This document shows positions 3,190 to 6,637 of a stretch of 52,357 nt of DNA, one piece after another (within the stretch, counting starts at the first letter, position 1; each line of letters begins with the position of its first letter). Source of the stretch: Planctomycetota bacterium. GTDB taxonomy: Bacteria > Planctomycetota > Planctomycetia > Pirellulales > UBA1268. Both the position numbers and the translations under genes were made by a program. The notes below the pieces were generated by a model. The model did no database searches. It saw nothing but the letters and a program-made list of their open reading frames with translations, and was not told the origin of the DNA. The stretch spans positions 1-52,357 of the forward strand of contig JBAXUW010000003.1 in assembly GCA_037129495.1 (NCBI GenBank), written 5' to 3'.

Positions 3190-4803
3190 GTGCGCACGAT
3201 CGAGATCTACGACACGACACTCCGCGACGGCTCACAGGGCGAGGGCGTCAACTTCTCTCTCGCAGACAAGCTGGCGATCACGAAGCGGCTCGACGAGGCT
3301 GGCATCGACTTTATCGAGGGCGGCTACCCGCTCTCGAATCCTAAAGACGCCCAGTATTTTACCCGTGTCCGTGAACTTAAAATCCGGCACTCACGGGTCT
3401 GCGCGTTTGGTATGACTCGCCGCCGCGGCCTGACAGCCGCCGAGGATCCGGGCATGAAGGCCCTTCTCGACGCCGGCACGAGCGTCATCACGATCGTTGG
3501 CAAGACATCGGCGTTTCACGTGACGGAGGTGCTCGGCGTGTCGCACGCGGAAAACCTCGCCATGATCACCGACACAGTCCGCTTCCTCACCGACTCCGGT
3601 CGGGAGGTCTTCTACGACGCGGAGCATTTCTTCGACGGCTGGAAGATCGACTCGGCTTATTCCGCCGAGACGATCCTGGCCGCCTCTCGGGCCGGTGCCA
3701 CTCGAGTCGTGCTCTGTGATACCAACGGCGGCACATTGCCCGCCGAGGTTGCCCGCATGGTCCGTGAGGCGGCGGCCGCGCTTGAGGCTGGCGGCGCAGG
3801 GGTGCCCCTGGCGATCCACTGTCACAACGACTGTGATCTCGCGACAGCCAACTCGCTTGCGGCAGTCGCCGCCGGCGCGGTGCAGGTGCAGGGCACGATC
3901 AACGGCATTGGCGAACGCTGCGGCAATGCCGACCTGATTTCGGTCGTCGCCAATCTCGCGGTCAAGCTCCCCGGCTATGCCGTGCTCGGTGGCGGCGGCC
4001 GCGAAGGTAGTGGCACAGCCCACCTAACGGAGCTTTCCCGGTTTGTCTACGAAACCGCGAACATGAGCTACCGTCCCGGCCAGCCCTTTGTCGGAACGAG
4101 CGCCTTCGCCCACAAGGGTGGCATGCATGTGCATGCTGTGGCCAAGGCGACGGAATCGTACGAACACATTCCGCCCGAGAGCGTCGGCAATTCCCGGCGG
4201 ATTCTCGTGAGCGAGTTGTCGGGTCGGTCAAACATCGCCGCGCTCGTCCATCGGCCAGACGTGAAGAACGATCGGGTGATCCTCGACCGGGTGCTGGCGG
4301 AGGTCTGCCGACTGGAGAACGAAGGCTGGCAGTTTGAGGCAGCGGGGGCATCCTTCGACCTGCTTGTAGACCGCTGTGCGGGCACGTTCAGGCCGGCTTT
4401 TTCAAAGCTCTCCTACAACGTGACGGTCGACAGCCGCAACGAGTTGGCAGCAGACGCCGGTGGTGCGGATGTGACGACTGAAGCCACAGTGAAGCTGGTG
4501 ATCGGCGGCGTGCTGCTGCACGAGGTGGCCGAGGGGGATGGGCCGGTGAACGCCCTCGATGCGGCGCTTCGCAAGGCGCTCGCTGCGACCTTCCCTGCCC
4601 TGTCGCGGATGCACCTGCTCGACTACAAGGTCCGCGTGATCAACGCTCAGGAAGGCACGGCCGCGAAGGTCCGCGTATCGATTGAGAGCACCGACGGCGA
4701 CTCCGTCTGGGGCACGGTGGGCGTGAGCGAGAATGTGATTGAGGCCAGCTGGCTTGCGCTTGCTGATTCATTCGAGTATTTTCTTTCGCGGTCAGTCGGC
4801 TGA
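3190..4803 (+). CDS. cimA: Citramalate synthase (LeuA/CimA family)
   Basis: IYDTTLRDGSQGEG, HCHND, NGIGERCGNA, AHKGGMH, and a C-terminal regulatory domain (EGDGPVNALD, LLDYKVR). GTG start at 3190, 22 nt after the ftsK stop. Confidence 0.92.
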   Translation: MRTIEIYDTTLRDGSQGEGVNFSLADKLAITKRLDEAGIDFIEGGYPLSNPKDAQYFTRVRELKIRHSRVCAFGMTRRRGLTAAEDPGMKALLDAGTSVITIVGKTSAFHVTEVLGVSHAENLAMITDTVRFLTDSGREVFYDAEHFFDGWKIDSAYSAETILAASRAGATRVVLCDTNGGTLPAEVARMVREAAAALEAGGAGVPLAIHCHNDCDLATANSLAAVAAGAVQVQGTINGIGERCGNADLISVVANLAVKLPGYAVLGGGGREGSGTAHLTELSRFVYETANMSYRPGQPFVGTSAFAHKGGMHVHAVAKATESYEHIPPESVGNSRRILVSELSGRSNIAALVHRPDVKNDRVILDRVLAEVCRLENEGWQFEAAGASFDLLVDRCAGTFRPAFSKLSYNVTVDSRNELAADAGGADVTTEATVKLVIGGVLLHEVAEGDGPVNALDAALRKALAATFPALSRMHLLDYKVRVINAQEGTAAKVRVSIESTDGDSVWGTVGVSENVIEASWLALADSFEYFLSRSVG

Positions 4804-4840
4804 GCGATGCTCGTCGAGCTCGGGCTGGCAGAAGTCTCCT

Positions 4841-4855
4841 GTGGGATAAGGGTTT
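4841..4855 (+). repeat. REP-like motif, truncated copy
   Basis: GTGGGATAAG(GGTTT), immediately left of the ISL3 left IR. Confidence 0.7.
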
Positions 4856-4856
4856 A

Positions 4857-5366
4857 GGGTCTTCAGCAGAATCTGTGGGTAAAAATCGCTGCTGAATGGG
4901 CGCTGGGCAACTCTTTCTCACGGGTGTGCATCTGCGATATGGGCATGGAGCCGGCCGCGGAGTCGCAGTCACCCGTCGGCGATCTGGGGCAAGGGATTAC
5001 CGCTTGGACAGCCCCTTCCTGGAGGTGCACGTCGAGCCCCGGGCCAATGGGCGGGCCATCTGCTCTGGCTGCGGCGAGAAGCGGCCCGGTCTTGAGTCGT
5101 GGTGCACCAAAGCCCTCCGCAGTCGGCTTGCGCCGATGAAGAAGGTCGCCAAAAGCCTGCGGCGTCATAAATCGCTGATCCTCAACTGGTTCCTCGCCCT
5201 GGGCGGCATCTCGGCAGGCGTCGTCGAGGGATTCAACGGCAAGGCGAAACTGACCACCAGAAAAGCCTACGGCTTCAGAACGCCGCAGGGCATCGAAATG
5301 GCTCTGTTTCACGTCCTCGGACGACGACCCGAGCCAGAATGTACCCACAGATTCTGCTGAGGAGGC
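4857..5366 (+). mobile_element. Internally deleted, non-autonomous ISL3-family element (510 bp)
   Basis: Terminal inverted repeats GGGTCTTCAGCAGAATCTGTGGGTA (4857-4881) and 5342-5366 match at 22/25, with the inner 19 bp perfect. The internal ORF carries ISL3 N-terminal and C-terminal motifs. No target-site duplication found. Confidence 0.85.
4896..5360 (+). pseudogene. ISL3 transposase remnant: N-terminal Zn-finger start fused in frame to the C-terminus, catalytic core missing
   Basis: LEVHVEPRANGRAICSGCGEKRPG is joined at about 5090/5091 to LESWC..ALRSRLAPMKKVAKSLRRH..LILNWF..SAGVVEGFNGKAKLTTRKAYGFRT..EPECTHRFC. The protein is 154 aa, versus roughly 400 aa for intact ISL3 transposases. Confidence 0.85.
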
Positions 5367-5381
5367 GAAAACTTATCCCAC
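5367..5381 (-). repeat. REP-like motif, truncated inverted copy
   Basis: GAAAACTTATCCCAC is the reverse complement of GTGGGATAAGTTTTC. It abuts the ISL3 right IR. Confidence 0.8.
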
Positions 5382-5422
5382 GGGGGCAGCAACTGCCGTG
5401 CCGAAAACTACTGCTATTCGGC

Positions 5423-6637
5423 CTATTGTTCCGCCGCTGTGACGAGCGCCGCGGCGGCGGCTTCCTGAAATGCGCGACGCACAATGCTACCGTCGCTGTT
5501 TGGGAAATTCGCTCGCTGCACCATCAGGATCGTGGCGGTGTGCTGTACGGGATCGATCCAGGCCTGTGTGCCCCAGGCGCCGCCGTGGCCGAAGGTGCCC
5601 GCTGAAAGACCGGCGGCGACGCCGTCGTGCGGCACCTTCACCACGCATGTGCCGACGCCCCAGCCATAGTTCTGGCCGTGGCTGCCATAGGCCTCGGCCT
5701 GCAAGAAGCCAGTTGGTAGGTCGCCCGTCTGCACGGCTGAGAGCGTGCCAACAGCCTCTTGGCTGAGGATTCGCTGGCCGTCGAACAGGCCGCGGTTGAG
5801 CAGCATCGTGCAGAAGCGGGCGTAGTCGAGCGGCGTCGAGTAGAGCCCACCGTTCCCCAGCGGCGGCCGCGACCGGTCGCCATATTCTCGCCGCGGAATG
5901 GCGACATCAAGCTGGCCTGTGTTTTTGTTGCGGAGATAGCCGGTTGCCAGCCGCCCGCGCTGGGTGTCGGTGGGATAGAAGGTCGTGTCGACCATCCCCA
6001 GCGGATCGAAGAGCCGCTTCTGGAGAAAGGTGTCAAACGGCTGCCCGCTGATCACCTCGACGATCCGGCCTGCAAGATTGAGGCCCGACTGTGTATAGAC
6101 CCACTTCTCGCCGGGCTCATACTGCATCGGCGCCGTAAGCCATGCCGGCACGAGCTCGGCGAGCGTCTTCGCGTCGTGGGCTGCTTGCCAGGCCGCCTCG
6201 CCGACGCCCGAGGTGTGCGTGAGTATCTGCCGGATCGTGAGCCGCGCAGGCTTGCCGGAGGGAGTCCTCAATTCGGCGAACTCTGGGATGTGACGTTCCA
6301 CAAGATCGTCGAGCGAGAGCCGGCCTTCGTCGGCGAGGATCATAATCGCCACACCGGTGACCGGCTTGGTCATCGAGGCGATCCAGAAGAACGTGTCGGG
6401 CGTCATCGGCCGGCCCGCCGCGACATCGGCCAAGCCGGTGCACTCAAGGTGACGGAAGTGCTCCCGATCGACGACCACGGTCACGGCCCCAACGATTTCA
6501 TGGGCGTCGATCATTGCCTGCATGGCCGCGCCGATGCCGGGGAGCCGGGGCTCGTCCGCGGTTGCGTCAGGAATTGGGAGCTGAGACACGAAGAGGGTGA
6601 TCGGAAGCACGAGCATAACCGCGGTGAGGAGTCGCAT
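5423..6637 (-). CDS. Secreted serine hydrolase, beta-lactamase family (class C-like)
   Basis: SxxK motif (ASMTKP), LLTHTSG-like ILTHTSG, WVYTQ, FGHGGAWGT. Signal peptide MRLLTAVMLVLP; start set at ATG 6637. Confidence 0.88.
   Translation of the reverse strand: MRLLTAVMLVLPITLFVSQLPIPDATADEPRLPGIGAAMQAMIDAHEIVGAVTVVVDREHFRHLECTGLADVAAGRPMTPDTFFWIASMTKPVTGVAIMILADEGRLSLDDLVERHIPEFAELRTPSGKPARLTIRQILTHTSGVGEAAWQAAHDAKTLAELVPAWLTAPMQYEPGEKWVYTQSGLNLAGRIVEVISGQPFDTFLQKRLFDPLGMVDTTFYPTDTQRGRLATGYLRNKNTGQLDVAIPRREYGDRSRPPLGNGGLYSTPLDYARFCTMLLNRGLFDGQRILSQEAVGTLSAVQTGDLPTGFLQAEAYGSHGQNYGWGVGTCVVKVPHDGVAAGLSAGTFGHGGAWGTQAWIDPVQHTATILMVQRANFPNSDGSIVRRAFQEAAAAALVTAAEQ

Follow-up and report, generated by a model that had tools for sequence, protein, structure and literature searches.

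Insertion sequences (ISs) of the ISL3 family carry terminal inverted repeats (IRs) of 15-39 bp and generate 8-bp direct repeats (PMC5395568). A different set of ISs has been described as inserted into repetitive extragenic palindromic (REP) sequences, including ISPsy8, ISPa11, ISPpu9/10, ISRm22, ISRm19 and IS1397, and the REP-targeting elements listed belong to the IS3, IS110, IS4, IS256 and IS5 families, ISL3 not being among them (Tobes and Pareja 2006, PMC1525189). In those cases, all or nearly all copies are found in REPs, the REP hairpin is interrupted at a reproducible position near the palindrome axis, and hybrid ISs with unmatched repeats, as reported for the REP-inserted ISRm22, have been attributed to recombination between one IS and another. 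Here, a stretch of 52,357 nucleotides from a Planctomycetota bacterium (contig JBAXUW010000003.1 of assembly GCA_037129495.1, hereafter the window) was analysed, which is contig C223 of a metagenome-assembled genome (MAG) of 3.8 Mb in 496 contigs, with 63% G+C and 92% completeness. Between a cimA/leuA-like synthase gene (hereafter cimA) and a serine hydrolase gene, the window harbours a 510-bp ISL3 derivative (4857-5366, + strand) bordered on each side by half of a host REP. This element is probably a dead, non-autonomous ISL3 remnant, formed by two insertions into REP loops and subsequent recombination between the copies. It combines phenomena of known kinds, namely an ISL3 deletion remnant, an IS inserted in a REP and a hybrid IS produced by recombination.

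To begin with, the ISL3 derivative and its 25-bp IRs, which a preliminary description of the locus had reported, were confirmed. The left and right IRs (IRL and IRR) are imperfect and match at 22 of 25 positions, within the range of the family, and the product of the internal open reading frame (ORF) matches PF01610 (DDE_Tnp_ISL3) with E = 1.5e-17, over profile positions 170-234 of 240 only. The terminal IRs, the PF01610 C-terminal domain and an A/T-rich 8-bp target are shared with an ISL3 clade whose ends read G(G/C)NTCN-TCAGCAGAATCTGTGGGTA. The 19-nt IR core was present in more than 118 species-representative genomes from many phyla, and the IS copies closest to the window element were found in Planctomycetia MAGs. 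Full-length relatives (L007, L104, L147 and L156) are 1581-1593 bp long and encode a 432-aa transposase. Among them, L147 (1593 bp), together with L104 and L156, is the closest full-length copy, and the C-terminus of its transposase is ~90% identical in amino acids to that of the window element. Unlike full ISL3 copies, the window element lacks the DDE core, the helix-turn-helix (HTH), the native start and the target duplication, and is a mosaic of two diverged copies.

Regarding the flanks, a REP box and its reverse complement lie on either side of the element, as had been stated: the 10-mer GTGGGATAAG appears at 4841-4850 (+) and at 5372-5381 (-), the copy at 5372 being indeed the only minus-strand REP of the window. 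These two repeats are referred to as REP(+) and REP(-), respectively, and their junctions with the element as F1 (left) and F2 (right). Also in agreement with the preliminary description, no target duplication was detected (AGGGTTTA on the left vs. GAAAACTT on the right), opposite to what is expected of the family. The claim that both REPs are cut at the loop held in its canonical form for the right one, where the IS directly follows GTGGGATAAGTTTTC, whereas the left junction, in which the IS follows GTGGGATAAGGGTTTA, lies in a 'GAGCT' variant of the REP rather than in the canonical loop. In this variant, the loop hexamer beside the IRL is polymorphic among assemblies (TTTTTA, ATTTTA and GGTTTA). 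In the case of REP(+), the left half is made up of GGGCTGGCAGAAGTCTCCT as upstream module, the box, and GGTTTA (4851-4856) as what is left of the loop; it matches the REP unit of a tandem array on MAG contig C98, with a variant (GTGGGATAAGGGTTGAGAGCT) at C90:21413. The 39-bp right flank matches ~30 REP copies in the MAG (nhmmer hit 5389-5367), and the upstream modules differ between the two halves. An extended IR of about 40 bp, formed jointly by the element and its flanks, had been proposed as well; it is apparent (44/43 nt) but requires a 1-nt offset. Inclusion of the REP halves in a longer IS end was ruled out, because elsewhere the copies of this lineage have GGGTC.. and ..GAGGAGGC as their ends and are bordered by unrelated DNA (MAG contigs C58, C238, C379, C442 and C481), ends that were confirmed by copies L160-L166 in other assemblies. 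The REP halves are therefore flanks and not IS termini.

The history of the locus is documented by a 33-kb scaffold from sample ERZ19401112 (L171), which encodes CimA and hydrolase proteins identical to those of the window. Its order is the 3' end of cimA, GTGGGATAAGTTTTTA, a 645-bp allele of the remnant (A1+A2), a 382-bp piece of another, dispersed repeat, REP(-) in uninterrupted form (GGACAAGTTAGAAAAATTATCCCAC) and the hydrolase gene; the two REPs lie ~1 kb apart and only the first one is interrupted. When the right 290 bp were aligned for all copies, two sequence types emerged, A and B. Between the junction and ..CATAAATCG (block 1), the window matches the A-type copies L165, L160, L161, L163 and L164, while in blocks 2-3, through the IRR, it matches the B-type copies L167, L168 and C58. 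Moreover, L167 has, at the REP(-) junction found in the window, a copy whose block 1 is of the B type. In sample ERZ27300155, the contig carrying cimA, F1 and A1 (L176) stops at 5162, and the contig carrying F2 and B continues into a B-type block 1, a pattern that fits two tandem copies. As a separate observation, the 382-bp module (L171 4851-5232) was also found in the MAG at C1:60545-60933, C22:9918-10224 and C279:55-231; it contains an 83-aa ORF resembling the tail of another transposase, and in the two full-length copies that were checked (L171 and C1:60545-60933) a REP(-) comes after it. The module is a further composite repeat dispersed in this species.

The history proposed starts from two points that the data show: elements of the clade insert into A/T-rich 8-bp targets, duplicating them, and copies tend to land in the loop and inner stem of GTGG-tagged REPs (..ATAAGTTTTC.. 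or ..AAGTTTTTA..), which are among the best-scoring targets. An old A-type copy would have entered the REP(+) loop after cimA and suffered at least three internal deletions, to judge from the junction. This remnant would then have been followed by the 382-bp fragment of the other repeat and an intact REP(-) before the hydrolase gene, the state found in L171. Subsequently, a B-type copy in the same orientation would have entered the REP(-) loop, an event whose right junction is present in L167 and L168 and whose left junction is presumed. Finally, the two direct copies would have recombined, with a crossover in the 5173-5197 interval suggested by the mosaic pattern of single-nucleotide polymorphisms (SNPs). 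Such a crossover would delete the A right end, the 382 bp, the right arm of REP(-), one copy of the duplicated target and the B left part, so that in the survivor the A left end would adjoin the REP(+) left half, and the B right end that of REP(-). Recombination between two direct copies would thus explain the inverted REP halves, the ~40-bp extended IR and the missing duplication, in the same way as it explains the ISRm22 copies without matched repeats. The REP-IS-REP composite that had been suggested earlier comes closest to the evidence, although the structure is a scar and not a mobile unit, and its halves derive from two different REPs.

A second ISL3 derivative of this kind, 792 bp long and with an out-of-frame junction after GHTYLTLVYQ, was found at L162 3668-4459 (corresponding to the start of MAG contig C379 plus the end of C58). 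It lies between pgk and the gene of a 358-aa protein and is flanked by two inverted REP right halves, as a mirror of the window case. In no congener were pgk and the 358-aa gene found on one contig. A reciprocal inversion between this element and that of the window was considered, since their flanks seemed complementary, the 8-mers matching at 7/8 and 6/8 positions (8/8 with the TTTTTA allele). It was dropped as an explanation of the window locus, as L171 has an uninterrupted REP(-) preceded by other DNA than in the window, and the 8-mers that match are unspecific, being contained within the REP consensus.

Some points weigh against two insertions followed by recombination. No contig holds both copies, the tandem intermediate, in one piece, and the left junction expected for the B copy at REP(-), ..GGACAAGTTAGAAAAMTT followed by GGGTC.., was not found in the contigs. 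Furthermore, perfect identity extends over only 25 bp in the switch interval, the surrounding DNA being ~95% identical, so that RecA would find a poor substrate there, and the REP-loop location of four of the roughly nine junctions described below may reflect selection for harmless sites or a structural preference. A similar product would also result from gene conversion accompanied by an independent deletion, or from a one-ended deletion of adjacent DNA mediated by the IS. In the latter, the A-type right end, served by a transposase acting in trans, would have attacked the REP(-) loop with no second copy involved at this locus, the right end having been converted later. The ~393 bp of L171 missing in the window, which run exactly from the IRR to the matrix-preferred position in the REP(-) loop, agree with an adjacent deletion, and such events leave no duplication (PMC1525189; bioRxiv 10.1101/2024.06.02.596822). 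However, the right ~170-190 bp carry B-type SNPs (as in L167 and C58) instead of the A2 type present at the same locus in L171 and L165, a copy with a B-type interior occupies this very junction in L167, and the MAG is without an assembled intact transposase, all of which makes a one-ended deletion unlikely.

An assembly artefact would arise from a wrong pairing at the 153-bp exact repeat that the element (5173-5325) has in common with contig C58, or from the collapse of a full-length IS. Besides this repeat, the short contigs L160 and L165, with the same left junction and other right flanks, as well as the many contigs that break inside the right part of the element, could be taken in its favour. 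On the other hand, an independent k141 contig from sample ERZ27300057 (L172) is 99.7% identical (2 mismatches) to window 4780-5480, a span that runs from the end of cimA through the REP(+) half, the 510-bp element and the REP(-) half to the end of the hydrolase gene. Moreover, the window-specific stretch joins A-specific bases to the first B-specific base over only 25 bp, an internal deletion junction of the element (RPG/LESW, see below) recurs in at least eight assemblies, and no leftover A-type right end was found in the MAG. The junction F2 was also recovered in L167 (a 47-kb contig) and L168 (JGI), and F1 in twelve further assemblies. In scans of JGI metagenomes, F1 had no match and F2 matched only one already known contig. 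A mis-join is ruled out in practice, the idea that the deletion was created by assembly is refuted by L172, and an artefact of either form is very improbable.

The target choice of the clade was derived from 112 distinct public flanks. The eight bases next to the IS end were A/T in 62-91% of them, with 75-91% at positions -7 to -2, and the A/T content fell to ~50% beyond -11; this pattern also appeared in hosts with more than 58% G+C. In addition, eight complete relatives showed perfect 8-bp duplications at non-REP sites, three of them being minis of 328-460 bp. These minis (L077, L115 and L130), found in other phyla, are true derivatives of the clade resembling miniature inverted-repeat transposable elements (MITEs). 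A log-odds target matrix built from the public flanks was then scored over the MAG. The REP-loop junction following ATAAGTTTTC reached 6.7 bits, within the top 0.2% of MAG positions and near the median of real sites. Along the plus strand of the REP consensus, the maximum fell exactly after gtgggataagttttc, which is the right junction of the window (6.7 bits). In the GAGCT variant, the position after gtgggataagttttta, equal to the left junction in the TTTTTA allele, scored 8.1 bits, second to the adjacent position with 8.4. The A/T preference measured in other phyla predicts both junctions of the window to the base.

Four of approximately nine distinct junctions of the species were located in REP loops (F1-F4), at two positions 1 nt apart. 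These were F1 and F2 in the window, F3 in C379/L162, where GGACAAGCGCTTAAAACTT precedes the IS, and F4 in C58/L162, where AGTTTTTAAGCTACC.. follows it. Non-REP, A/T-rich junctions included F5 at C481:3454 (empty in the MAG) and those of L161, L163 and L164. About 3% of the good-scoring target sites of the MAG lie in REPs. Copies tend to land in REP loops, which are among the best A/T-rich targets in a genome of 63% G+C. As in the REP-inserted ISs known to date, the hairpin is interrupted at a reproducible position near its axis, but those ISs have nearly all their copies at a fixed REP position, whereas the use of REPs by this ISL3 lineage is facultative and follows a generic A/T-rich preference. 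Consequently, the earlier proposal that the lineage targets the REP loop stands only in a weak sense, the loops being among the best sites of a clade that targets A/T-rich 8-mers everywhere; as a specific targeting, it is contradicted by the relatives in other phyla with normal 8-bp duplications at non-REP sites. It is doubtful that ISL3 elements of G+C-rich planctomycetes have REP hairpin loops as their main 'safe harbour' and as a hub of recombination, beyond what the matrix predicts. Furthermore, a single insertion without duplication, by an ISL3 element recognising REPs, into a pre-existing palindrome of two REP left arms would account for the left halves at symmetric distances, the inverted-repeat-like flanks (two right halves) of the L162 element and the four REP-loop junctions, but is extremely unlikely given that an uninterrupted GTGGGATAAG-loop-CTTATCCCAC with a short loop is absent from the MAG, that L171 has the REPs 1 kb apart with REP(-) intact, that the clade yields normal 8-bp duplications at non-REP sites elsewhere and that the two halves bear different REP upstream modules.

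Other observations concern the surroundings of related copies. A ~60-bp repeat (TTCAGAGGGCAGTTTCAGCC..AAAACTGCAAAAGCCGAG) lies immediately after the right ends of two different ISL3-type lineages, often at contig ends (C481:1-15, C44:1-55, C242:1-50, C27:5530, C182:1773, C211:99, L160 571-711 and L166 489-672), and could represent either a favoured target or a portion of some larger composite. A very A/T-rich segment of 1.4 kb with a 430-aa gene (L163 3232-4618), placed between the right end and the left end of two direct copies, could be a composite-transposon-like cargo. Moreover, a solo IRL with ~40 bp of adjoining IS sequence was found in three congeneric genomes (L013 1501-1526, L014 757-784 and L016 1501-1526), apparently at one locus in three species and with A/T-rich non-REP flanks. 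This relic is old, and the ISL3 lineage is thus ancient in the genus.

The internal deletions were measured against L163, the closest parent-like copy. Window 4857-5005, comprising the IRL and the 5' untranslated region (UTR), is 99.3% identical to L163 4619-4767. Past 5005, 252 bp of L163 are missing, including the native start (MHLKSILN); this loss probably corresponds to two short-repeat deletions, and the sister alleles L171 and L178/179 each retain one of the two pieces lost at ~5005. A zinc-finger fragment follows, which reads PFLEV..CSGCGEKRPG in the alignment to L147, L104 and L163, and then a second loss of ~817 bp creates the junction CCCGGT/CTTGAG, that is, RPG/LESW at 5089/5090, after which the last ~90 codons remain. 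In total, ~1070 bp were deleted and 510 of ~1590 bp remain, with a nucleotide identity of ~85% between the retained parts and the full-length relatives. The preliminary description had proposed an in-frame deletion fusing the start of the zinc finger to the C-terminus; the frame is open and the DDE core gone, but more than one deletion is involved (252 and ~817 bp), and of the zinc finger the first CxxC survives while the rest is lost, the 38 N-terminal codons being translated UTR. Complete zf-ISL3, HTH and DDE parts, as expected in an autonomous element, are thus not found, the HTH, the DDE core and the second CxxC having disappeared.

At least three internal types of the element occur at the cimA locus in the population, all sharing the RPG/LESW junction. 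The L171-type allele keeps 135 bp of UTR absent from the window, the L178/179-type allele keeps the native ATG region with a broken frame and an early stop, and the window-type allele has neither of these pieces. The junction was detected in 13 assemblies, always at the cimA locus and at no other, and hence the element did not spread in the manner of a MITE; the deletion thus recurs among assemblies, as had been asked, but only at this locus. Small size, intact terminal repeats and an internal transposase deletion are shared with the MITE-like minis, but the confinement to one locus, without amplification or duplication, makes it a remnant and not a proven mobile element.

The 154-aa ORF is an accidental by-product of the deletions, with no demonstrated function; it is encoded at no other locus, and an exact look-up of its product returned no record besides the window's own. 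The suggestion that this product is a maintained truncated transposase, inhibiting or regulating full-length copies, found no support and is hardly credible: the open frame retains the last ~90 residues of DDE_Tnp_ISL3 and is also open in L165, but residues 1-38 stem from translated UTR, the native start has been lost, a single CxxC remains without any HTH, an internal TAG interrupts the alleles of L171, L173 and L174, the native-ATG frame of L178/179 stops early, the C-terminus of L160 has 14 replacements in 48 codons, and the MAG lacks a full-length partner to be regulated, four ISL3 transposase fragments and no intact gene having been assembled.

With respect to the host repeat, the box is the left arm of a hairpin with the consensus (c)cGTGGGATAAGTTTTCYAACTTGTCC, with a 9-bp stem (GGATAAGTT/AACTTGTCC) and the loop TTCY. 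The box appears 9 times in the window when one mismatch is allowed, vs. 1.65 expected, and the MAG contains 249 exact boxes and 263 nhmmer hits over 3.8 Mb. The repeat has variants, such as GTGGGATAAG-TTTTTAGAGCTTGTCC, and is often embedded in larger modules. This repeat is a short imperfect palindrome, extragenic and of high copy number, with a 5' GTGG tag, like the GTAG/GTGG-tagged REPs and bacterial interspersed mosaic elements (BIMEs) (Di Nocera et al. 2013; Ton-Hoang et al. 2012, PMC3333891). As in those systems, its extragenic copies number in the hundreds, occur together with other modules and can form tandem arrays. Unlike them, no REP-associated tyrosine transposase (RAYT, a Y1 transposase) was found, PF01797 giving no match in the 92%-complete MAG although the controls scored, so its absence is unproven, and the T/C asymmetry of the stem allows a G-U pair on one strand only, namely when the + strand is read as RNA. 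The seven intact REPs of the window (13043, 30279, 33992, 34177, 42705, 47751 and 47788) are all on the + strand, whatever the orientation of the neighbouring genes. In addition, MAG contig C98:6028-6318 carries at least four head-to-tail units of 81 bp, each with a REP hairpin, a GCTGCC..GGCA hairpin and GGGCCGGCAGAAGTCTCCTC, in an array that reaches the contig end. REP modules in this host can form tandem arrays.

The features of the locus are collected in Table 1. The protein identical to the synthase has the Pfam domains HMGL-like and LeuA_dimer. An FtsK-like gene lies upstream of cimA, and this synteny is retained in congeners (~80% nucleotide identity), where the genes on the right side are found elsewhere, 70 kb off in G011. 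The IS marks a break of synteny. An empty site was not recovered in the ten closest genomes (~80% identical), in which FtsK-cimA is kept and the downstream DNA differs.

Table 1. Features of the ISL3 remnant and its surroundings, in window coordinates
Feature	Position	Strand	Remarks
cimA/leuA-like synthase gene, 548 aa	3157..4803	+	Left neighbour; REP(+) lies past its 3' end
Left half of REP(+), 'GAGCT' variant	4821..4856	+	Loop cut by the IS (junction F1)
IRL, GGGTCTTCAGCAGAATCTGTGGGTA	4857-4881	+	End set by C379, L162, L163 and the 112 public flanks
5' UTR of the parent IS, A type	4882..5005	+	The 154-aa ORF opens here, at a chance ATG (4896)
154-aa chance ORF	4896..5360	+	UTR-derived N-terminus, zinc-finger fragment and last ~90 aa of DDE_Tnp_ISL3
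Fragment encoding PFLEVHVEPRANGRAICSGCGEKRPG	5006..5089	+	Carries the first CxxC of the ISL3 zinc finger; a deletion junction at either end
Start of the C-terminal transposase fragment, A type (..GTCATAAATCG)	5090..5172	+	Identical to L165, L160, L161, L163 and L164; unlike L167, L162 and C58
A-to-B switch interval	5173..5197	+	25 bp identical in both types
B-type right part including the IRR	5198..5366	+	SNPs as in L167, L168 and C58; not the A2 type of L165, L171, L161, L163 and L164
IRR, GCCTCCTCAGCAGAATCTGTGGGTA as read on the reverse strand	5342-5366
Left half of REP(-), GTGGGATAAGTTTTC plus upstream module GGCACGGCAGTTGCTGCCCCC	5367..5405	-	Loop cut (junction F2)
Beta-lactamase-fold serine hydrolase gene, 404 aa	5423..6637	-	Right neighbour, transcribed towards cimA; the identical protein matches PF00144

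Taken by itself, the locus is an ordinary scar of mobile-element turnover. It nevertheless serves as a worked example in which a clade-wide A/T preference suffices to predict, to the base, the entry of ISL3 elements into a REP hairpin of a G+C-rich host genome, and public assemblies of one uncultured species hold the stages of the process, from the remnant with an intact REP, through the second copy in a REP, to the recombined mosaic. For annotators, it is a caution that recombination and deletion can accidentally create 'extended inverted repeats' and in-frame mini-transposases at sites of this type. If the use of REPs did exceed the prediction of the matrix, the extruded hairpin or the single-stranded loop itself would be recognised by the ISL3 transposase, ISL3 would join the REP-targeting IS families, and REPs would drive rearrangement at the strain level. 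Even so, ISL3 was previously unlisted among the REP-associated IS families, and the present case modestly widens that list.

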